Translations under genes and position numbers: made by a program | Source: a bacterium | GTDB lineage: Bacteria > Cyanobacteriota > Vampirovibrionia > Gastranaerophilales > JBAXKC01 | Assembly (NCBI GenBank): GCA_037137535.1 | Contig: JBAXKC010000029.1 | Span: 1-31,013 of the forward strand | Length of the DNA stretch: 31,013 nt | Direction: 5' to 3' | Part shown: positions 8,764-30,860 of the stretch, piece after piece | Numbering within the stretch: the first letter of the stretch is position 1 | How the letters are laid out: each line of letters begins with the position of its first letter | The notes under the pieces: generated by a model | What the model saw: only the letters and a program-made list of their open reading frames with translations | What the model was told of the DNA's origin: nothing | Databases searched by the model: none

Positions 8764-9339
8764 TTAAACTACTTGATTTAAGTTTTGTAGAGCATTGCCC
8801 ATTTTTTCATAGGCTTCAGCTTTTCCGAGATTATTTACTGCTTTGTGTTCTCCGTCAACATGTCCGCCATCATAAGCTCTTTTTATTACAATTGCAGATG
8901 CAGCCGCTGCGGCAATAAATTTAACCGGGCCGGGAATATTTTTCAGCCATTCAAGAGCATTTGAGGAGTGTTGTACTACAAAGTCTTTTGCTGTCTTTAG
9001 CGACCCAATTTTTCTTAAAGGGGCTTTTATGCTTTCCATTATACTGTCTGCATGTCCTTTAACGCTCTTGCCAAAGGCATTAAGATTGTTTTTAACAAAA
9101 TCCTGATCGTATATTAATTTACTTGCTATCGCCAGTAATGATACTCCAAGAAGTTTTGCGGCTGCATTCATGTTTAAATTATTTTTATTTGGTTTAGGTG
9201 ACTCTTCAAACTTTTTAACCTCAGCATTAGCTTTATGGATAGCCCCCATTTCCATGTTTGCTTTTATTTGCTGTTTATTTATTTGATCAAATTGAGATAC
9301 AAATTGATTTTGCCCCACATTTCCTGCAAAGTTTACCAC
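8764..9339 (-). CDS. Hypothetical protein with two hydrophobic segments
   Basis: GTG start with strong RBS GAGGAGG; hydrophobic stretches AAAKLLGVSLLAIA and FIAAAAASAIVI. Confidence 0.75.
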   Translation of the reverse strand: MVNFAGNVGQNQFVSQFDQINKQQIKANMEMGAIHKANAEVKKFEESPKPNKNNLNMNAAAKLLGVSLLAIASKLIYDQDFVKNNLNAFGKSVKGHADSIMESIKAPLRKIGSLKTAKDFVVQHSSNALEWLKNIPGPVKFIAAAAASAIVIKRAYDGGHVDGEHKAVNNLGKAEAYEKMGNALQNLNQVV

Positions 9340-9417: not shown

Positions 9418-9705
9418 TTAAGATTTTTTAAACCTTGGAAATATTATAACAAGGGCTGTTACCGCTATTAAGGCAAGTGTTCCAATAAATAAATTCGCTA
9501 TTTTCTGAAAGTTTTTAATTTTATGTTTTTTATCTTCATAACCTTGTAAATATGATTGAGAATAAGTGTCAGCAAACTCTGTTACATCTATATTAGAAGA
9601 TAAGGACGTTTTTTTGGCGTAGCTTTGAGCATAATCAACTGTTTGTTGGTAATGCTCCTGTTTTTTAAAATCTTTAGTATTAAAATTTGCTGATGTTAAT
9701 TTCAT
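9418..9705 (-). CDS. Small hypothetical protein with C-terminal transmembrane helix
   Basis: 95 aa; IANLFIGTLALIAVTALVIIF followed by a basic tail; starts 5 nt after the upstream gene's stop. Confidence 0.65.
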   Translation of the reverse strand: MKLTSANFNTKDFKKQEHYQQTVDYAQSYAKKTSLSSNIDVTEFADTYSQSYLQGYEDKKHKIKNFQKIANLFIGTLALIAVTALVIIFPRFKKS

Positions 9706-9710
9706 ATATT

Positions 9711-10037
9711 TTAAGCAATCTGATTGCTTGACATAAACTTACTTGGAATATTGTCTTCACCTTCTTCATATCCGATTTGATGACCTTTTATGAAGCCTTC
9801 TTCGACTCCTTTTTGGTAGCCATCTTCAAAACCTTTATTAAATCCGGCCATTATACCTTCTTTATAGCCTTTATCATAAGGATTTTCTTTCTTTGAAAAC
9901 CACATGGCGGGAACAGCTTGTTGAGGATTGGCAGTTGCAGAATTTATTTGAGCTTGAGCAGTTACAGGTGTTTGTTTAACCTGTTGATTTTGCTTAAAAG
10001 CCATTGGATTGTATGAAGAGAATCTATTTATATTCAT
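9711..10037 (-). CDS. Small protein with (GxxxG)n repeat (FliH/Yae1_N-like helix)
   Basis: Ten glycines at exact 4-residue spacing: YDKGYKEGIMAGFNKGFEDGYQKGVEEGFIKGHQIGYEEG. Confidence 0.7.
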   Translation of the reverse strand: MNINRFSSYNPMAFKQNQQVKQTPVTAQAQINSATANPQQAVPAMWFSKKENPYDKGYKEGIMAGFNKGFEDGYQKGVEEGFIKGHQIGYEEGEDNIPSKFMSSNQIA

Positions 10038-10338
10038 ATTTTTTCATCAATTAAACTGCGACACTTATACTAAAACAAAAGACAAAAATTAATTTACTGA
10101 ATAATTTTATAATAAAAAATATGATAAGTCATAAGGTAAAGAGTAATATGAAATTGAATTTACAGATTCGATTTAAATTGGCATGGGTGACTTTTGTATT
10201 TGGATTTAAGTTTTAATTATGATTTGTAAACTTTTTTAAACTTTTCTTTGGGATTTATCAATCTTAATTTTTTAGCGACTTAATAAAATAAATCCATAGT
10301 CAGATTGTTATGATTGGATGTAAGAAGAGGTTTGAATA

Positions 10339-11664
10339 ATGGTAAATTTGAATCCCGTTAGTTTTAAAGGGATATATGGAACGGTAAAAACAACTGATGG
10401 TAAAACTAAGAAGCTAGAGGACATTAAACCTGAATTAAAACAAGAAGGCAGTATTTTAACGATTGGGCCAGATTCAAAACTGATAATTGATGCCTTAAAA
10501 GGCTACAACTCAATCGAATCTGTTAAAATCACAAAAGTAGATAAGAACAGTACGCTTGTTCTTGATAATTCAAATGAAATAGTTCCTGATATTGAGATAG
10601 AAAATACTGATAATGCTTATGTTGACTTGCTGGGTAATTCAACAGCTAAAATAACAGGAACGGCTAAAGATAGTCAGATAAATGTTTCAGACAATTCAAA
10701 ACTTAATGTTGAAAAGTCTTTAGATACTCATGTTTCTCAATTTGGCGGTGAGCTTAATATTGATACTTTGAGCAGTAATTATCCAATTCCTGAATATGAT
10801 AAAAAACATACAATTAAGAAATATGCCTATAATAATCCTGTTGATGAAGATACAGTAAGAAGAGAAGGTGTAAATAGAGTAGAATCAACTATTAAAGATG
10901 CAAAAGAAGAGGTTAAGTTTGATACTGATTTTGCTAAAGGAAAATTAAGGGAATATTTAACTTCTCATAGTACAGTTGTTGTTTCCGGTGAAAATTCAAT
11001 TGCTAATGTTAAAAATGCAGAAAACGGAACATTAATTCATCATGCAAATGAGAAATCAGAAGTAACTGTTAATAATCTTGAAAAAGGAAGTAAACTTATT
11101 GCTCCTGGTAGATATAGCGAAAAGAATATTGATATAAAAAAATTAATTGCTTCATTAACGGATAGACAGTTTGAAGATAGTATTAGAGATTTATGTAAAA
11201 AAGAAGCTAGACATACTCTTGGAAAAATGAATAATAGAAATGAAAAAGATCAATTAGTCAATGAAATGGTGGAGACAAGGCTTACAAAAGTTGAAGATCA
11301 TAAACGAGTAAAAAAACAAAGATCGGAAGTTTCCATAAGTCAGGAAGAAGCTGGAATTATTATTGATTTTAACAGATTGGATCCTGCAAAATTCTCAAAT
11401 GGAATGGACAATAATGAAGCATCTGAATACAAAAAAAATCACGTTAAAAATAATAATGGTGGTGAAATTATAAGCAATACTAAATATTCCTATCAACGAG
11501 TCGGTAATACTTATGATGATAGTGACGATAATGTAGATAGAAATTATTTTGCTTATCGAAATAAAAGAGATGCAGTGCAAGTAGATTCTTATAATCTTGA
11601 ACCATTTACTAACAGGAGAGATTATGAGGAAAAATATAAAGCAGGATATGACGAACCTGTATAG
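10339..11664 (+). CDS. Hypothetical protein, probable beta-solenoid segments
   Basis: 441-aa ORF, RBS AGAGG, own terminator; repeated short beta-like units (NSTLVLDNS, NSTAKITG, DSQINVSDNSKLNV). Confidence 0.75.
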   Translation: MVNLNPVSFKGIYGTVKTTDGKTKKLEDIKPELKQEGSILTIGPDSKLIIDALKGYNSIESVKITKVDKNSTLVLDNSNEIVPDIEIENTDNAYVDLLGNSTAKITGTAKDSQINVSDNSKLNVEKSLDTHVSQFGGELNIDTLSSNYPIPEYDKKHTIKKYAYNNPVDEDTVRREGVNRVESTIKDAKEEVKFDTDFAKGKLREYLTSHSTVVVSGENSIANVKNAENGTLIHHANEKSEVTVNNLEKGSKLIAPGRYSEKNIDIKKLIASLTDRQFEDSIRDLCKKEARHTLGKMNNRNEKDQLVNEMVETRLTKVEDHKRVKKQRSEVSISQEEAGIIIDFNRLDPAKFSNGMDNNEASEYKKNHVKNNNGGEIISNTKYSYQRVGNTYDDSDDNVDRNYFAYRNKRDAVQVDSYNLEPFTNRRDYEEKYKAGYDEPV

Positions 11665-11676
11665 TCTTAAATAGAT

Positions 11677-11707
11677 AAAAATGCGAGTAATAAAACTCGC
11701 ATTTTTT
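11677..11707 (+). terminator. Intrinsic terminator
   Basis: AAAAATGCGAGT-aataaa-ACTCGCATTTTT. Confidence 0.85.
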
Positions 11708-11749
11708 ATACTAATTTAACTAATTTTTTGATAATATTTAAAATTTTTC

Positions 11750-11941
11750 AAAATAGAGTTAAGAACCACTATCCACAAGTGGTTTGCTTCTTTTCTCAAG
11801 AGTTACTTTGTGTGAAATTATTCAAGGAGTAAGAAGAGAAGCCAGTAGCGGGTAGATGCACTATCTTTTTGTTTTTGGTTACTTTTTATTTTTTAAAAAA
11901 TAAAAAGTAACTCAATGGCTTTAGGCATAGAAATTTTCTTG
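11750..11941. repeat. Dispersed structured repeat, copy 2 (long form with extra hairpins)
   Basis: Same three blocks as 5293-5392. Hairpins AACCACT/AGTGGTT, GCTTCTTTTCT/AGAAGAGAAGC and GGTAG/CTATC, plus a perfect 34-bp palindrome at 11878-11911. Confidence 0.75.
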
Positions 11942-12060
11942 TGTTAAGGGCTTTGAGAGCGGATGAAAGAAGTATTTTGTTGGATAGTTATATTAACATT
12001 ATTGACCGAATAACTGTTTGAACTTATCTGATATTTTTTAATGTTTTGACATTAAGGGTT

Positions 12061-13030
12061 TTAGTCAAATTTTTTATTCGATGAATTCTGTTTATTGTCA
12101 TAGCAGGGTTGTTGATTCATTATCAATGGTATGCTCGTTTCTATTCATAAACTTCATTGCTTCTATTGCCTTATAAGGCTCAAATCCTGCATCATATAAA
12201 TTAAAGCATATTTATCGGCTTCATGTTCGATTTGTCTTGATACAGATAGTATTTCATCTTCTTTGTTTTGTTTGAAGTTTGTTAAATATTCTGTTTGAGC
12301 TTTATCATTTATGCTTTTTCGAGCTGTTTTCATAACTTTTTCCATACGTGATGAATATTTTAAATTATTATTAGCCAGCTCATGTGCTACTACAAAGGCT
12401 AATACTGAAATATTCCCTGCATAGCTGTCATATAAAACAGGATAAATTAGGAGTTACGCAAAATTGTTTAAGAGCTAACTCTATTGGATTGTAGCGATGC
12501 CTAAACCTAAATGAATCCTATAGCTAGTATTGCGACTACTACTGCATATATAAAACCATGGTTATTTATTCAAAAAACTAGAGTTATATTCTAAATTTTC
12601 ATAAAAAACTCTAAAAATAATCTCTTTTTGAAGCAAAACTCATTATGGTTAATGGTCAAAGTACTCATTGTGAGATTCATTTAAGCACAGCTATTAAAAT
12701 AAGACTTTATTTTCAGCAGTTTTGATACTTTGCGTAACTCCTGATTATTATTAAATTTCTATCTGAAGCCACAGCATTAAATTCATCATTTTTAACAGGC
12801 ACATATATTCGCTATAGAATATTGTCAAGTTTATTTACACTAATAAGTCTTTCAGTTTTTCTATATAAAGTATAATTGTATTTATTTGATTCCGTTTCAT
12901 ATTTTTGATATAAATAAGTTTCTTTATTCTAATTTATTGTTTTTACTTGAGGTTTTAAAATTTTTTTTGGAGCAGTAATTATGTTATTTATAAACATTAA
13001 AGAAAATGCTAAAATTAATAAAAATCTCAT
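12061..13030 (-). pseudogene. Degraded M48-family metallopeptidase gene interrupted by a MITE
   Basis: Manual translation from ATG 13030: signal-like MRFLLILAFSLMF; in-frame TAGs at 12929-12931 and 12812-12814; DEFNAVASDRNLII|IYPVLYDS...LAFVVAHELAN; SRQIEHEADKYA; then frameshifted AGFEPYKAIEAM and EST/NPAM..NRI. The 3' boundary is approximate. Confidence 0.85.
12448..12743. mobile_element. 296-bp MITE (non-autonomous transposon)
   Basis: TIRs (T/C)AGGAGTTACGCAAA; AT dinucleotide on both flanks; removing the element plus one AT restores the M48 reading frame; symmetric internal IR TAAATGAATC (12508-12517) / GATTCATTTA (12674-12683); no transposase ORF. Confidence 0.88.
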
Positions 13031-13156
13031 TATTTTTTCCATAATTAACCATATTAATTATATAGGAAAAATTTAATATGATTCTGATTTTATTTAAGCC
13101 TATTTGTTTTAATTTTGTAATATATTAAATAGGTTGGAGCTTTAAAGGATTTAAGT

Positions 13157-16650: not shown

Positions 16651-17028
16651 ATGAATAATCTAAATCTTTCTCATCAAACACAACACAATACCGCTTTTCA
16701 AGGTGGAATTAAACTACCAAAAAAAGCAATAGCAACTGCTACAGCTGTTATGCTTAATTTGCCTTCAGCAGGAGTTGCTATTGCAGAAAAAGCTCCGAAG
16801 GCTGATATATGTGAATTAGGCGGAAAAATTGTTAATGTAGTTCCTGCTTCTAATAGAGGATTTTTCACAAATGTTGCAGAAAAAATCAGGTTAATTCAAG
16901 TAGATGCAGAATTGAGAAGACAAGAAACTAAGGCAGAGGCATGTCTTAAAAAGAACTCGCAAGAACTTCAGCAAATACAAAAAGTTTTAGATGATCAAAT
17001 CAAAAAAGCTTTTAAATCGCATGGTTAA
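16651..17028 (+). CDS. Hypothetical protein; polar leader followed by a signal-peptide-like segment
   Basis: 125 aa, AGGA RBS, followed by a bidirectional terminator. Confidence 0.65.
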   Translation: MNNLNLSHQTQHNTAFQGGIKLPKKAIATATAVMLNLPSAGVAIAEKAPKADICELGGKIVNVVPASNRGFFTNVAEKIRLIQVDAELRRQETKAEACLKKNSQELQQIQKVLDDQIKKAFKSHG

Positions 17029-21238: not shown

Positions 21239-24200
21239 ATGAACTGCCCGCAATGTAATATTAGTAACTCAGATAATGCAGTTAAATGTGAAAACTGTGG
21301 TAATAAGCTAAAAATAGCATGCCCAAAGTGTAAGGTTATTAATAATATTAATGCCGTTAAATGCACTAATTGCTCTTTTAGGTTGATTTATCCTTGTCCT
21401 TCCTGCAAAAAACCTTACCAGATAAGTGCTAAACAATGTTCTACTTGTGGTTTTGAGGTGCTTAAAGCTTGCCCTGAATGTAAGGCGATGAATCTTTATA
21501 CTAAAATTAAGTGTAATAAATGCGGATTTAATTTATGTGAAGATCAGCCTATAGTACAAGAAGTTCAACCTAGTTCCAGCGTAGAACCTATTCAAGAATA
21601 TCCAATTTTGACCGCAGAACTTATAAATATCTTATCTATAAAAGATAAAGTTAAAAATCCTGTAGTCTTGACTAAAATTTTAAATGGTTTTTATAAAATA
21701 ATAGGACTTAATGCTGATATTTCAGGTTCTACTGCTAAAAAAATCAAAGAAAATATTGTATCTTTTAGTTTTAATGATTATGGTGATGGAGAAACCTCTT
21801 CAATTAGTGCTGTTTATACTGCTATTAAAATCCTTTCCGATATAAAAGAATATAATTATAAAATTAAAGATAAAGTTAAATTATCTTTAAAGATAAAAAT
21901 TGGCATTTCTATGCAAAATATCATGGATAAATCTGATTATTCACAGATAGAAAGAAGTTTAGCTTCTTTTGAAGATATAATCATCGATAGAAAAATTTAT
22001 AATAGTGTCTATGAGTCTTTTGAATTTGATGCAATCAAAGGAGCAGACGGACAATATTATTATAAATTAAAACAACTTGATGACATTAGTGTTGAAGGTT
22101 CTCAAGATTTGCCTCATGAAGAAGCCACTCCTTTAATTATTGAGAATGAGCCGATAATTGAAAATCAACAAGAGCAGGTTTCTTTAGAAGAACCTGTTGA
22201 AGAAGTTCCATATGAGGAAATCACCTTACAAGAATATAATGAGCAAGCTCCTGTTAATGACATAATAGAAGAGGAAAATGTTCAACAGGTAGAAGAACTA
22301 ATTCAACCGCAAGCTGAACAATTACCAGTTGAGTCATCAAATGAAAAAGAGCTTAATCAAGAAAAGACTTTTAATTTCTTATCCAATATTATTCAAAAAG
22401 CAGATAATGGCTTTATTATTCAACTTACTGCCCAAAATGGTGCAGGAAAATCTTCAATTGTTAATTCTGTAAGAAATTCCTTAACACAGGAAAAAATCTT
22501 ATGGCTAACAGGTCAATGCCAACCGTTTAATCAAATTGTTCCTTTTGGATTAATGAAAGATCTCTTTAAAAATCTATTTAATTTGCCAAGTCAGATAATC
22601 AATATTGAAGAAGCAAAGAAAAGTATTAATCATACCATTCAAAATATAATGGAAATTGATAATAAAGCAATTGAGCATAGTATAGCTAAGCTTGTTTTAT
22701 CTGATAATATTGTCGAACGAACAGATATAAATGCGAATCTATATGAAGTCTATAATACTATCGAGTCAATCTTTAACGTAATATCTAATAAATTAAAATG
22801 CGTATTAATCATTGAAGACTTTGAATATATTGATAAATCTTCGTTGGATTGTCTTAAATTCCTTATCGGTCGTGGTCTTTTAAATAACAAGTTTCATATA
22901 ATAATTAATCAAGTTCCTGAAGTTAACGCTAAAGATCAATTAATGAATATGGGAATTGATAATAGAATTTTCACTATTAAATTATTACCTTTACAACCCG
23001 ATGAAACTTTACAGACAATGATGTCTATGCTTAACGGGCAAGATATTATCCCTACAAAACTAAAAAATAAAATTATAGAAAAAGCTAAAGGCATACCGCT
23101 ATATGTTGAGCAAGTATTTTGGATTTTATATAATTCAGGTGCAATTGTAAGAGATGGGGAAGCCTATAAATTTAACCCCGAAGCCTCTGCAATTGATATT
23201 CCCGAAACAATAGAAGAATTGATTCAATTAAGAATAGGACAAATTCACTCTTTATCGGCAAGTGCTTTTAATATTTTAACTATGTCCAGTATTTTGGGTT
23301 ATAAATTTATACCTGTTATAGCTCAAAATATTACTAATATGAAAGCTGAAGAATTCTCTCATATTCTTCAAACTCTTGGAACAATGGGTATTTTCGTACA
23401 AGCGGATAAATTAAATATAAGTTTCAAGCATAAGTTAATTTGGGATGCTTGTTATCAAACCTTATTGACATTACCGCAAAAAAGCGAGTATTTTACTCAA
23501 GCTTATAATATCTTAAAAAATTATACAAAAACTTCAAGTGCAATGTTAGCATTGATTGCTGAAAGTTCAAATAATAATCGTGAAGCTTTAAATCAATGGG
23601 GCGGAGCATCACAGGAGTCTATCGTGCTTGGTGATTCTGAAACCTTTACTAAGGCACAGCAAAGAGCATTATCTTTAATTGACATGACTGATATTCCAGA
23701 AAAAGAAGCTATAAAAAACAATATTTATGAACAACTTGGTGTTATTAATTTTGAAATTAATCCTCAAGAAGCAACTACATACCTTTCAAATGCTATAATT
23801 CAAGGAGAAAAAGACAATAATATTCCTAAAATTATTGAGTTATCAGGTTATCTAGCAAAAAGTTGTGAAATTATTGGAAATTATGCAGGTTCTGTAGAGT
23901 GTTCAGATAAAGCATTAGCTTTATTGAATAAAGATCAAATGCCTCTGGATTATGCATTATTAAATTATTCAAAGATTGAACCTCTTGTAAATCTTGGAAA
24001 ACTTGAAGAAGCTATAATTTTAACTTCGCATGATGTTTTACCAATTTTACATCAGGCTTTTGAAAACAAAAGTACAATATCAGGACTGTCAATGAGTGAA
24101 TTGACCTATATAATGCTTGAGTCTGAATTATTGTTAGGTAAAGCCTTAGTCTATCAAGGTAATAAAAATGCTTTAAATGTGCTTCAATCAACAGCTTCAA

Positions 24201-25057
24201 AGGCAGTTGAGCTGGAGGTCGTTGATATTGAAGTTCAAGCTAGATTATTTGAGGCTATTTATAAAACAATTCAAGGCGATACTAAATCAAGCAACGCTAT
24301 GCTTGAGTATTTAAAAACAATTATTCCAAAAGTTAAAAATAAAAATACGATTAAAATTTATTGGGGTGCAGCTAATTTATTACTGCAATTCATTGAAGGA
24401 AATGCTAATGAAGCCAGTAATATTGCCTTTACTCTCTTGACAATGGCACAAGAGCAAAAAGATTATAATATTGAGGCTTTAGCTAAATTCATGATCGGCA
24501 AACTCTTAAAAGATGCAAGAAATTATGAAAATGCTAATACTATGTTTAATGATACTATTCAATATTGTTCAGAACACAAGCTGGCAACAGGTGCATTAAT
24601 GGGCTGGTATTTAATTGCAGAATCTAAGTTGACACTTGGTGATCTTGATAATGCACTTGAAATTGCTACTAAGGCTCTTGATGTTGCTACTAAATCAAAT
24701 ATTAATAACCATTTATTCAAAGTATTACTCAATAAAGTTATGTCTGAAGTTTATATTTTAAAAGGCGATTTTGAAAATTCTAAAATGTATATTGAGCAAG
24801 CAATTGAGCTGGCTACGCACATGGAGCTTTTCTTCTTGATCTCAAAGCTATATATGGCTTATGGTAAGACTTATCAGGAATATGCTATTTCATCAGAGCA
24901 TAATAGGCAAAACTTTGTTCATAATGCCCATTCTTTGTATATTACAGCACTACAAACAGCTGAAAGAATTGATAATGAGCAGCTGATTGCGCAGGTTAAT
25001 AAAGAAATTATTGATTTAGAAACCTTCTGCCAATTGTCCGGGATTCAGATTTCATAA
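21239..25057 (+). CDS. Multidomain protein: zinc ribbons + degenerate class III nucleotide cyclase + STAND-type ATPase + TPR
   Basis: Eight CxxC pairs; cyclase-fold pattern (ILTAELI...SAVYTAIKIL...LKIKIGIS); acidic linker; AQNGAGKS Walker A, LIIEDFEYID Walker B, AKGIPLYVEQ GxP motif, FKHKLIWDACY; helical TPR-like C-terminus. Confidence 0.8.
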   Translation: MNCPQCNISNSDNAVKCENCGNKLKIACPKCKVINNINAVKCTNCSFRLIYPCPSCKKPYQISAKQCSTCGFEVLKACPECKAMNLYTKIKCNKCGFNLCEDQPIVQEVQPSSSVEPIQEYPILTAELINILSIKDKVKNPVVLTKILNGFYKIIGLNADISGSTAKKIKENIVSFSFNDYGDGETSSISAVYTAIKILSDIKEYNYKIKDKVKLSLKIKIGISMQNIMDKSDYSQIERSLASFEDIIIDRKIYNSVYESFEFDAIKGADGQYYYKLKQLDDISVEGSQDLPHEEATPLIIENEPIIENQQEQVSLEEPVEEVPYEEITLQEYNEQAPVNDIIEEENVQQVEELIQPQAEQLPVESSNEKELNQEKTFNFLSNIIQKADNGFIIQLTAQNGAGKSSIVNSVRNSLTQEKILWLTGQCQPFNQIVPFGLMKDLFKNLFNLPSQIINIEEAKKSINHTIQNIMEIDNKAIEHSIAKLVLSDNIVERTDINANLYEVYNTIESIFNVISNKLKCVLIIEDFEYIDKSSLDCLKFLIGRGLLNNKFHIIINQVPEVNAKDQLMNMGIDNRIFTIKLLPLQPDETLQTMMSMLNGQDIIPTKLKNKIIEKAKGIPLYVEQVFWILYNSGAIVRDGEAYKFNPEASAIDIPETIEELIQLRIGQIHSLSASAFNILTMSSILGYKFIPVIAQNITNMKAEEFSHILQTLGTMGIFVQADKLNISFKHKLIWDACYQTLLTLPQKSEYFTQAYNILKNYTKTSSAMLALIAESSNNNREALNQWGGASQESIVLGDSETFTKAQQRALSLIDMTDIPEKEAIKNNIYEQLGVINFEINPQEATTYLSNAIIQGEKDNNIPKIIELSGYLAKSCEIIGNYAGSVECSDKALALLNKDQMPLDYALLNYSKIEPLVNLGKLEEAIILTSHDVLPILHQAFENKSTISGLSMSELTYIMLESELLLGKALVYQGNKNALNVLQSTASKAVELEVVDIEVQARLFEAIYKTIQGDTKSSNAMLEYLKTIIPKVKNKNTIKIYWGAANLLLQFIEGNANEASNIAFTLLTMAQEQKDYNIEALAKFMIGKLLKDARNYENANTMFNDTIQYCSEHKLATGALMGWYLIAESKLTLGDLDNALEIATKALDVATKSNINNHLFKVLLNKVMSEVYILKGDFENSKMYIEQAIELATHMELFFLISKLYMAYGKTYQEYAISSEHNRQNFVHNAHSLYITALQTAERIDNEQLIAQVNKEIIDLETFCQLSGIQIS

Positions 25058-29431: not shown

Positions 29432-29762
29432 TTTCTCAACAACATCCTTCTTTTTTATTAAAACCTCTTACAGAATATTATAGTATTTAAAGATTTTTTG
29501 AGCATTAATTTTATTTAGTTTTTAGTCAACATTAATATATACTAATCGGGGGAATTTATGTGAAAATCCTTATATAATAGCTATTACAAAGTGTTTTTAC
29601 ATAAAACTAAGCTGTATATTTCATGTCTGCAAGAAGTCATCTTGTAAAAAATTGTAAATATTAATTCTTTATTCTCTTTATTTTGGCATGAAAACGATTG
29701 TTTTTTACTTATTAAAATAATAAAGAACATAATCGTGGGTTCAGTAATGGAAGGATTAAAGA

Positions 29763-30860
29763 TTGTTAAATACTTCAAATTACTCGCATAATTTAACAGC
29801 TTTTAATAGACAGCAAAATCCGATAGAAAATAATAAACTTGCATTTGGGTGCAGGATTATGGGCATGATTAAAGCTGAAGAACCAACCGTTGAAGATGAT
29901 ATAGTCAGAAAAGAATGTCTTGAAACCAATAAAGAATCTCTAAAAGCTCAAAGCACTCCGCAAGGAAATATTCAAAGAAACGGAATAAAAGAAGCATATA
30001 ATGTTGAGGATTATTTTAAAATTTATTCTCAGCGTGGCAATCCTGACGGTTGGGGTGTTTCTGCGCATTTCAGGAATTATCATGTTCCATTTATAAAGAA
30101 AAGCAAAGATTGTGCGGCTACTGATGCTAATTATGATAAAACTATTAATGATTTAATTGCTAAGCATCCAAAAGTAATCCTTGCTCATATTCGTTTGGCT
30201 TCTCCTGAATGTAAGCCTGTTTCAGAAAAAAATGCTCATCCGTTTTCTTATAAAGATTGGAGTTTTGAGCATAATGGTTTTATGGGCGGAGCATTGAAGC
30301 CTGAAATTCAAGATAAAATTAAAGGTTCATATTATTTACTGCTTGGCGACAGACCAAAAGGAAATACTGATTCTGAATCGACTTTTTATTACTTTATGGG
30401 CAAATTGAAAGAGCAACATGGCTCAACCGATACGTCTAAAATTGGCATAGAAAAAACTAAACAGACTTTTGCAGACACCCTTGTTGAGTTGTTCGATAAA
30501 ACTGATTTAAAAACATGGGATTTAGACGGAAGTGTTATGAATGTTAAAGGCAAGCTCGATCTCTCTCCGGCATGTAACATCATTTCATCTGACGGTAATA
30601 TGATTATGGCTTTCAGAAAAGGCCATGAACTTTATCTGGGCGAATATACAAACTTAAAGGGCGAACATCAATATATAGTTTCATCAGAAACTGTACAGCC
30701 TGAAAATCCGAGAGAAAGAATACATTGGGGTGAAATCCCTGATGGGCATATGGTTGTAGTTGCTAAAAACGAAAAAGGTGTTTTACAACCTGAATTTACA
30801 CCTCTTTCCTATTTGGTTCAAAATTATGACAAAATAAGAGATAAGAAGAAAGTAAAGTAA
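29763..30860 (+). CDS. Class II (Ntn) glutamine amidotransferase, YafJ/EgtC-like, with 29-aa N-terminal leader
   Basis: CRIMG, NPDGWG, AHIRLAS, NAHPF...WSFEHNG, GNTDSE and IVSSE motifs; TTG start after AAGGA; nucleophile Cys is residue 30. Confidence 0.85.
   Translation: MLNTSNYSHNLTAFNRQQNPIENNKLAFGCRIMGMIKAEEPTVEDDIVRKECLETNKESLKAQSTPQGNIQRNGIKEAYNVEDYFKIYSQRGNPDGWGVSAHFRNYHVPFIKKSKDCAATDANYDKTINDLIAKHPKVILAHIRLASPECKPVSEKNAHPFSYKDWSFEHNGFMGGALKPEIQDKIKGSYYLLLGDRPKGNTDSESTFYYFMGKLKEQHGSTDTSKIGIEKTKQTFADTLVELFDKTDLKTWDLDGSVMNVKGKLDLSPACNIISSDGNMIMAFRKGHELYLGEYTNLKGEHQYIVSSETVQPENPRERIHWGEIPDGHMVVVAKNEKGVLQPEFTPLSYLVQNYDKIRDKKKVK

Follow-up and report, generated by a model that had tools for sequence, protein, structure and literature searches.

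The last gene of the window, i.e., the whole 31,013-nucleotide stretch that was analysed (contig JBAXKC010000029.1 of the Gastranaerophilales assembly GCA_037137535.1), encodes a YafJ/EgtC-like class II N-terminal nucleophile (Ntn) amidohydrolase whose predicted catalytic cysteine, Cys30, is preceded by a 29-residue polar leader ending in Phe-Gly. This open reading frame (ORF) likely specifies a zymogen that is cut between Gly29 and Cys30, with Phe-Gly as processing determinant and with the leader having the sorting or export role of an N-terminal tag that recurs throughout the source genome (2.95 Mb, 100% complete, labelled G000; other genomes are labelled likewise, e.g., G520 and G015). As judged from the sequences, the enzyme belongs to a large and new clade of putative GATase_4 precursors in which the Phe-Gly ahead of the nucleophile is invariant (66 representatives of clusters at 50% identity were classified); among the genomes searched, this clade has so far turned up solely in the non-photosynthetic class that is sister to the cyanobacteria. 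Also new are the alternation of this Phe-Gly leader with Sec signal peptides and, in the source order, a junction identical in kind to an uncharacterised proteome-wide tag. Coordinates of all features are given in Table 1.

A YafJ/EgtC-like gene with a TTG start and a polar leader

The enzyme gene is situated in an AT-rich window (28–37% G+C in 2-kb windows), and its start was read from the codons themselves. An in-frame TAA stop (29757–29759) is located two codons 5′ of the TTG, the 28 in-frame codons between this TTG and the TGC of Cys30 include no ATG, GTG, or TTG, and the next in-frame ATGs (Met33 and Met35) both lie downstream of Cys30. Moreover, the start region is covered by DNA contigs of two other samples from the same study, whose runs are labelled as freshwater metagenome (29471–29797 and 29624–29825), and since the sole mismatch of both contigs to the window is at position 29667, the TTG is no assembly slip. 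Three RNA-library contigs from the probable source sample also fall inside the enzyme ORF (29832–30012, 30292–30502, and 30542–30838), which is no proof of transcription and gives no 5′ end. A short ORF of 14 codons (29747–29791), read in another frame from an ATG at 29747, overlaps both the Shine-Dalgarno-like site and the TTG of the enzyme.

Residues 92–230 of the ORF match the Pfam GATase_4 profile (PF13230) from profile position 26 onwards, at 44.6 bits versus a cut-off of 23 (E = 1.1e-11), which makes the protein a member of that family. Against the NCBIfam EgtC equivalog (TIGR03442) it scored 57.9 bits, short of the cut-off of 218.65, and by its sequence the enzyme resembles EgtC without being EgtC. 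When a profile of 78 relatives was compared with solved structures, 3MDN (8.6e-31), 1TE5 (7.3e-19), and EgtC (9.4e-17) were retrieved, and the EgtC alignment opened at chain residue 2, i.e., the Cys of its Met-Cys start, with which Cys30 was aligned. An AlphaFold2 model built on the 78-sequence alignment (pLDDT 93.1, pTM 0.89) was confident from residue 31, with residues 31–37 forming the first β-strand, and a Foldseek search with this model returned EgtC first (E = 8e-15, TM on target 0.79–0.82), followed by the glutaminase domains of GlmS and PurF, all three at probability 1.00.

Four positions of the 78-sequence alignment do not vary (C30, 78/78; G98; P160; G172), and conservation reaches 90% or more at R31, H142, R144, H159, F161, and E205. 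From these conserved residues and the fold, the class II Ntn catalytic apparatus therefore appears intact, with Cys30 as the predicted nucleophile of the family; the oxyanion-hole role of H-N-G is one that we assume from what is known of PurF and GlmS. The sequence-only reading of the window had described both a TTG-started ORF devoid of alternative starts before the Cys and intact YafJ/EgtC-type motifs downstream of it; the former agrees with the codons and the contigs of the other samples, and the latter with the Pfam match and the alignment. A clade-specific insertion of about 55 residues, modelled with helices at 43–55, 81–85, and 87–91, is absent from Met-Cys relatives of 250–300 aa. The enzyme as a whole is a class II glutamine-amidotransferase fold without a partner synthase domain, and its substrate is probably some γ-glutamyl amide, which would be hydrolysed.

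The leader itself displayed no secondary structure before residue 31 in the AlphaFold2 model, its mean pLDDT being 49, 58, and 66 for residues 1–10, 11–20, and 21–30, respectively. It is established for class II amidotransferases that the α-amine of the first Cys has to be free, and since the enzyme class requires this free N-terminal Cys, we infer that the precursor is cut, very probably at the Gly29–Cys30 bond. It is very unlikely that the leader is never removed, the protein then being a silent relative or one that employs Cys30 as an internal nucleophile. While the EgtC score far under its cut-off would suit such a relative, Cys30, the Asn-Gly motif, R144, and T-D-S-E are all under strong conservation, and in relatives the same Cys is immediately preceded by Met or by a Sec signal that can be cleaved off, as would be expected if a free α-amine is required.

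The residues before the cysteine among homologues

The N-terminus was classified in 159 proteins, i.e., 11 from a first homologue search and 148 others among the 150 matches listed out of 685 that a profile-free exhaustive search yielded at E ≤ 1e-3. One protein of the first search, 44% identical to the enzyme, is recorded as from a 'Candidatus Gastranaerophilaceae bacterium'. A polar leader of 4–49 aa preceded the aligned Cys in 66 of the 159 proteins, 35 started with Met-Cys, and 11 were signal-peptide-like by a crude hydrophobicity rule (at least 9 of 12 residues from LIVFMWAC, by which the window leader was classed as polar). By eye, the latter 11 include one ending in TTFG/C, one over-long-called Met-Cys protein, and two with other architectures. 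The aligned Cys was absent from the remaining 47 proteins, which are fragments, gene calls that begin at a Met closely following the Cys, or short forms missed by the alignment.

All 66 polar-leader homologues carry Phe at position –2 to the Cys, despite complete divergence of leader length and sequence. The two residues before the Cys are FG in 60 of them, FK in three, FA in two, and FS in one, and the F28, G29, and C30 columns are invariant in 36 of the 36 polar-leader homologues that were aligned. The FG dipeptide is kept even with leaders of only 4–8 residues (e.g., MLFG and MQINPGFG), while the residue directly before Phe is R or K in 38 of the 60 FG junctions. The three FK/C homologues have N-rich leaders and are situated on two separate branches of the tree described below. 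Close homologues, for which the sequence-only reading had considered a Met-Cys start, were thus found to carry leaders, with Met-Cys belonging to short relatives, and the FG-Cys junction, the conservation of which it had put to the question, recurs before the Cys with Phe in 66/66 and Gly in 60/66 cases.

Over 21 distinct loci, the junction is specified by mixed synonymous codons (TTT 15 and TTC 6 for Phe; GGG 9, GGC 8, GGA 3, and GGT 1 for Gly), therefore pointing to selection on the protein, and in the DNA of relatives the leaders are in frame with ATG starts of their own. It is consequently hardly credible that translation starts at Met33 or Met35 and that the frame upstream is open by chance. 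An AGGA does occur 7–8 nt before the second of these ATGs, and gene callers used the Met just after the Cys in homologues P0003, P0005, P0020, P0024, P0071, P0104, and P0121. However, such a product would lose the invariant Cys, and the upstream frame is open, F-G-C-R is kept with synonymous codon variation in the 21 loci, and the TTG has its own Shine-Dalgarno-like site.

The enzyme gene is rare among kin of the source genome, being present in 6 of 41 closer relatives; an order-wide search recovered it from 6 of 401 genomes, and the large family f3 (367 genomes) yielded none. Each orthologous locus starts with an ATG of its own and encodes a polar leader, the ends being LSFG/C, ISFG/C (twice), VGFG/C, and, in the shortest one, MQINPGFG/C, and paralogues in these orthologue-bearing genomes display hydrophobic signal peptides ending in SLA/C. 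Class-wide, the gene was found in 30 of 301 genomes. Family f18 contributes 13 loci with polar leaders ending in [RKQL]FG/C (and one more locus cut by a contig end), family f14 has one RFG/C locus besides 11 loci with Sec-type signal peptides ending in A/C, and families f11 and f12 have Met-Cys, so that enzymes of the Sec type and of the polar type occur as orthologues within one class. In a sample of the phylum, 17 of 251 genomes matched, and the 16 besides G000 belong to families outside those with the long form in the class search. These 16 match from model position 70 or beyond, in open frames of at most 307 aa where whole, and look like short forms.

To place both leader types, a tree of mature domains only was built (99 rows, quick IQ-TREE run, SH-aLRT support only), with Met-Cys rows limited to eight, P0139, P0155, and rows of fewer than 230 mature residues dropped, and P0082 and P0098 relabelled by eye. 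Long forms constituted a single clade of 91 rows (support 100), in which the signal-peptide forms (17 rows) were nested among polar-leader forms and ended exactly at the aligned Cys. The signal-peptide label changed four times on the tree, with at least two of these changes being forced by well-supported branches, i.e., the leader was swapped 2–4 times. FG is lost where a Sec signal is present, and by eye roughly 7 of the 17 keep Phe or Trp at –2. Since the Sec signals end exactly at the same Cys, the bond before this Cys is the bond that needs cleavage, and whatever element precedes the Cys, its sequence appears to be a cleavable one that ends exactly there.

With regard to genetic context, the enzyme gene in eight f18 loci (L013, L015, and L018–L023) is located directly 3′ of the gene for serine dehydratase alpha (PF03313, E 1e-66 to 3e-69), with a preceding ACT-domain ORF, and DapB is encoded nearby in several of them. 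This synteny might hint at an amino-acid-related substrate.

The leader and the N-terminal tag of the source genome

The tag was characterised on 2619 crude G000 ORFs (longest ORF, first start, overlaps resolved greedily). Dozens of these ORFs start with M-x-[IL]-N, followed by a stretch in which Asn, Gln, Ser, Thr, and Lys abound and then by [VIL][SAG]F[KG...][GAS], this motif often being doubled within one leader. A seeded matrix, run over the first 45 residues with a threshold fixed on an internal control, matched 95–161 of the 2619 N-termini versus 10 of 2026 internal windows, numbers that are inflated by training on the same set. In a two-fold held-out test departing from all N-terminal F[GK] occurrences, 74–95/2619 N-termini (2.8–3.6%) matched versus 20–25/1914 internal windows (1.0–1.3%; p 8e-7 to 2e-5). 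The tag motif is real in G000 and is present on about 3–6% of its ORFs. Lys (44–49) and Gly (15–22) are the two commonest residues after the tag Phe in the 74–95 held-out matches, and G/A/S is enriched directly after F-[GK] in the seeded matrix. Narrow full-text searches of open-access literature found no description of this tag or of a GATase_4 propeptide.

Whether the enzyme leader belongs to this tag was scored with a matrix rebuilt without the enzyme ORF, using positions –8 to +1 with the Cys unscored and conditioning on Phe. Ranked against the 25541 internal Phe positions of the proteome, the junction NNKLAFG reached p = 0.0003, and the orthologue junctions of N-rich lineages reached p 0.0001–0.0012, with weaker ones at 0.01–0.02; polar composition contributes part of these junction scores. 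The upstream T-A-F-N motif scored p = 0.0065 with the same matrix. That the leader is a shared N-terminal element, as the sequence-only reading had proposed, hence holds as a match to a genome-wide motif with held-out validation, and on balance we think that the leader also serves as the tag of its lineage. The six other N-termini within the window that had been considered alike fared less well: those at 10339 (+) and 9711 (–) pass the threshold, while those at 16651 (+; with a recognisable TAFQG), 8764 (–), 9418 (–), and 111 (–) fail. The ORF at 16651–17028 does resemble, by eye, an ORF on contig 40 (2984–3418) that passes.

Pfam was run on 55 of the 58 carriers present in 20 fetched genome regions, drawn from 115 filtered matches, and no family was found at E ≤ 1e-3 in 43 of these 55. 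The other scanned carriers include a VanY peptidase, two dual-specificity phosphatases, and J-domain, SLOG/LOG, HNH, and FHA proteins, as well as three that are clearly spurious (FlgE, IleRS, and a radical SAM enzyme); another two matches stayed under their family cut-offs. A membrane-span-like segment follows the motif in 15 of 117 carriers, among which the VanY-like one, where the motif, since it precedes the span, is on the cytoplasmic side.

As a set, the phosphatases and the J-domain carrier resemble effectors, here of a bacterium that is free-living or lives in the gut. Five tandem paralogues of 111–115 aa were also observed in G000 (C25:29118–30881), with near-identical tag leaders (MQLTTRTTANYPTYQK...QVAFSGNIG) and with no Pfam family in the two that were scanned; these paralogues may be subject to concerted evolution. 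Elsewhere in the order the G000 matrix gave few matches, i.e., 5/204 versus 1/160 in G015 (one of the five being a flagellar hook-type N-terminus), 2/195 versus 1/139 in G028, and 1/61 versus 1/42 in G002, so that either the tag does occur in the other families of the order but is much rarer, or the matrix is genome-specific.

As to the remainder of the window, both passing carriers are part of a cluster of small and mid-sized orphan ORFs (8764–9339, 9418–9705, and 9711–10037 on the minus strand, and 10339–11664 on the plus strand), in which no Pfam family was found above its cut-off, Yae1_N reaching 26.8 versus 27.5 on 9711–10037. This cluster is followed by about 1.5 kb without any ORF of more than 60 aa (11665–13156), adjoining the stretch where GC skew peaks within the window (0.24, at 10001–12000). 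An Rfam scan of the window gave no match. A 1272-aa ORF (21239–25057) has, at its N-terminus, several Cys-x2-Cys repeats reminiscent of zinc ribbons, beyond which a long helical region extends.

Table 1. Coordinates of the enzyme gene, its leader and motifs, and carriers of the N-terminal tag (window positions, unless preceded by a G000 contig)
Feature	Position	Strand	Remarks
Shine-Dalgarno-like GAAGGA	29750..29755	+	7 nt 5′ of TTG, read from sequence
Enzyme ORF	29763-30860	+	365 aa, TTG start, last gene in window
TTG start codon	29763..29765	+	sole in-frame ATG/GTG/TTG between upstream TAA and Cys codon
Polar leader MLNTSNYSHNLTAFNRQQNPIENNKLAFG	29763..29849	+	29 codons, without hydrophobic core, predicted disordered
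First tag-like motif T-A-F-N, residues 12-15	29796..29807	+	best-scoring position of the ORF in the seeded genome-wide matrix
Junction motif K-L-A-F-G, residues 25-29	29835..29849	+	proposed processing determinant, cut after Gly29
TGC, Cys30	29850..29852	+	predicted N-terminal nucleophile of mature enzyme
Mature YafJ/EgtC-like class II (Ntn) amidohydrolase	29850..30860	+	336 aa plus stop codon
Clade-specific helical insertion, residues about 38-92	29874..30038	+	approximate; between first strand and DGWG motif
A-H-I-R	30183..30194	+	H142, R144 nearly invariant
H-N-G	30270..30278	+	G172 invariant; class II oxyanion-hole Asn-Gly by homology
T-D-S-E	30366..30377	+	E205 nearly invariant
Tag carrier MNINRFSSYNPMAFKQ...	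9711..10037	-	108 aa; score 12.3 vs threshold 8.27
Tag carrier MVNLNPVSFKG...	10339..11664	+	441 aa; score 20.0 vs threshold 8.27; no Pfam family above cut-off
Weak carrier ...HNTAFQGG...	16651..17028	+	score 2.3, below threshold 8.27
VanY-type D-Ala-D-Ala carboxypeptidase	G000 C25:41180-42121		E=7e-42; motif ...DSISFTS... before single membrane span
Tag-bearing dual-specificity phosphatases	G000 C24:37466-38260, C20:48067-49077		PTP-NADK, Tc-R-P, Y_phosphatase3, E 1e-8 to 1e-10
Tag-bearing J-domain protein	G000 C40:3555-4268

Proposed leader removal and comparison with known systems

In the mechanism that we favour, the ORF would be made as an inactive precursor of a YafJ/EgtC-like Ntn amidohydrolase, in which the disordered leader of 29 residues would block the α-amino group of Cys30 until cleavage of the Gly29–Cys30 bond exposes the nucleophile. 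Throughout the long-form clade, processing would be determined by the invariant Phe(–2)-Gly(–1). Given cleavage, we lean by analogy towards the enzyme cutting itself, via an N-to-S acyl shift at Gly-Cys as in PurF-type propeptides, with a leader protease acting in trans as the less likely route. In the source order, the leader 5′ of FG would have taken the form of the common tag (i.e., a polar stretch followed by [VIL][SAG]F[KG]), and before its removal it would probably serve the sorting or export function of that tag. PurF-type propeptides are autocatalytically cleaved, exposing the Cys α-amine, and the plant one is removed in Escherichia coli, according to PMC7056826. From the original idea of a new leader class, the conserved FG junction and the genome-wide motif stand, and the leading mechanism has become what the sequence-only reading itself had entered as a caveat, i.e., a self-cleaved ordinary Ntn propeptide.

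A number of points weigh against this mechanism. Cleavage is deduced from what the enzyme class requires, the preference for self-cleavage leans on the precedent of another family (PurF), AlphaFold confidence is low for residues 21–29 (block mean 66), and F28-G29 was not seen docked in the active site. Self-cleavage in particular has to be reconciled with the Lys at –1 to the Cys in three homologues, and with a junction that closely fits the tag of more than 100 proteins incapable of self-cleavage. The motif counts behind that tag in turn rest on crude ORF calls, and the list of 161 matches is known to contain false positives, such as FlgE, IleRS, two signal peptides, and a radical SAM protein. 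Cleavage by a shared protease has its own difficulties, as FG is invariant even in leaders as short as MLFG and MQINPGFG, as the [RKQ]FG junctions of G+C-richer lineages misfit the G000 tag (p 0.04–0.26), and as the conserved neighbours are serine dehydratase alpha, an ACT-domain protein, DapB, and unnamed ORFs, with no protease or transporter among them.

Since a shared machine that reads the junction would lead one to expect a matching proteome-wide N-terminal family in the [RK]FG/C lineages, 800 kb of G520, a genome of this type, were sampled, and 616 ORFs passed a GC3 filter. The held-out xFG test was not significant in this under-powered sample (9–12/616 versus 3–7/501, p 0.07–0.64) and lends no support to a shared machine, and an iterated matrix (41/616 versus 4/489) was over-fitted. 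Plain dipeptide and tripeptide counts, which are underpowered even in G000, gave one nominal signal ([RK]FG, 2.2-fold, p = 0.024 among 7 groups).

These data bear on the possibility that the leader is an ordinary self-cleaving Ntn propeptide and nothing else, its likeness to the tag reflecting a shared polar composition and a short chance match. The Phe at –2 and the Gly at –1 are invariant across lineages that differ widely in composition and in leader length (4–49 aa), the G520 held-out tests gave no support for an N-terminal xFG family, the neighbours are housekeeping genes (with serine dehydratase alpha in eight loci, the ACT-domain protein, and DapB), and self-cleavage has been reported for PurF-type class II enzymes (PMC7056826). 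Nevertheless, in the source order the junction matches the tag matrix at p = 0.0001–0.0003, this match includes the [VIL] and [SAG] two and one before Phe that are lacking in the rest of the clade, Gly changed to Lys at –1 on two separate tree branches that both have N-rich leaders, and the same leader holds the second tag-like motif, T-A-F-N (p = 0.0065). A propeptide without any relation to the tag is quite conceivable, if somewhat short of probable.

At the other extreme, all carriers could share one leader class, in which a lineage-specific peptidase or an export-coupled protease recognises [VIL][SAG]F[GK] together with the small residue behind it and cuts after F-[GK], perhaps in the course of export. 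The share of tagged ORFs (about 3–6%), the absence of a Pfam family from most scanned carriers, and the G/A/S enrichment right after F-[GK] would fit such a class, as would carriers like VanY, the two phosphatases, and the J-domain, SLOG, and HNH proteins. In the enzyme, moreover, a cut directly behind F-G makes functional sense, and its leader was replaced 2–4 times by Sec signals, with both types being orthologous within the class. We nonetheless regard a shared leader class as rather unlikely, as no carrier besides the enzyme displays any sign of cleavage, the motif of the VanY-like carrier is on the cytoplasmic side and a span occurs in only 15/117 carriers, and the G520 held-out test was not significant. 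Moreover, no protease could be put forward as a candidate (Prp being absent, and the two C39-ABC transporters expecting Gly-Gly, not Phe-Gly/Lys), and FlhA is present with either leader type, so that the idea of flagellar export gains nothing. Along the same line, it is unlikely that a dedicated leader machine recognises [VIL][SAG]F[GK] in the cytoplasm and cuts after F-[GK] on more than 100 proteins per genome, keeping the enzyme off until it is delivered, so that the Phe-Gly/Cys junction would report the cut site of an undescribed leader class of this lineage, with mostly orphan carriers; the cut of such a machine would probably be coupled to Sec-independent export. That all carriers are cut after F-[GK] seems equally improbable, and that the tag is an export signal is doubtful, albeit less so.

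Several known leader types were considered and set aside. For processing of the Prp/L27 type, PF04327 had no match in the 100%-complete genome, with a control search matching 3 of 14 named genomes. Cleavage by a C39 peptidase of the double-glycine type does not fit the junction, position –2 being Phe in 66/66 homologues; the genome does have two C39-ABC genes, which are unlinked. A Sec or lipoprotein signal peptide was rejected for the window leader, which lacks a hydrophobic run, the signal-peptide-like cases being the paralogues L007–L009 and the 11 f14 loci. In type IV prepilins, the Gly at –1 is followed by a helix that is hydrophobic over about 20 residues and has Glu at +5; here, Gly29 is followed by CRIMGMIKAEEP and the hydrophobic helix is absent. 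Inspection of the leader likewise ruled out Lipobox, Tat, and prepilin readings. A link to flagellar export via co-occurrence with FlhA was uninformative, since FlhA was found in 202 of 301 genomes, in 19/19 genomes of f14 and 25/25 of f18, and in every family with either leader type. The same class-wide FHIPEP search revealed at least two FlhA-family matches in most genomes and three in G000. Both matches were full length and on different contigs in family f13 (e.g., G494, E 1e-231 and 3e-227), and a second type III export gate may exist in these lineages of the class.

If the favoured mechanism is true, the chemistry of the enzyme fixes the cut site and provides the first sharp experimental handle on the polar tag of this lineage, and the repeated swap between leader and Sec signal at the same bond raises the question whether the tag is an alternative export route. 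The finding exceeds that of a masked Ntn enzyme only if the tag family proves to be processed.

Among known systems, the closest likeness within the fold is to EgtC, YafJ, and SPO2029 (PDB 4ZFJ/4ZFK/4ZFL, 1TE5, and 3MDN), which are stand-alone glutaminase-type Ntn domains with the same Cys, Asn-Gly, Arg, and TDSE-type motifs. These start with Met-Cys and measure about 235–275 aa, whereas the window protein adds a leader of 29 aa and an insertion of about 55 aa. Leaders for double-glycine/C39 processing are likewise polar, non-Sec, and 15–30 aa long, with Gly at –1 and a hydrophobic residue at –4, yet they carry Gly, Ala, or Ser at –2. The window leader differs in its invariant Phe at –2, in the tolerance of Lys at –1 among its homologues, and in having no LSxxELxxIxGG-type pattern.

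Sec signals that abut an Ntn Cys are known from periplasmic acylases of Gram-negatives, and the L007–L009 paralogues and the f14 orthologues, which end in ...SLA/C, ...VLA/C, or ...AWA/C, are of this kind. In contrast, the window leader has no hydrophobic core and ends in F-G, and signal peptidase I or II can therefore not be invoked for it. The proteasome β-subunit and penicillin V acylase (PVA) share with the enzyme an Ntn nucleophile masked by a propeptide, which in these two is released autocatalytically, with Gly at –1 in the β-subunit and Met-Leu-Gly/Cys in the acylase. They belong to other families, with Thr as nucleophile in the proteasome, and we know of no conserved Phe at –2 in their propeptides. 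For the proteasome β-subunit, the abstract of PMC4792962 describes an N-terminal propeptide that masks the nucleophile and is released autocatalytically.

Finally, the PurF-type propeptide of Bacillus subtilis, plants, and animals resembles the window leader in being a short propeptide directly before a class II catalytic Cys, and PurF chains match the model of the enzyme. It differs in belonging to another family (PurF versus GATase_4/YafJ), in its 11 residues ending in Glu-Glu rather than Phe-Gly, and in being no part of a proteome-wide N-terminal motif, and to our knowledge it does not alternate with Sec signal peptides. By analogy, the enzyme would thus work like a masked Ntn enzyme of the PurF or proteasome type.

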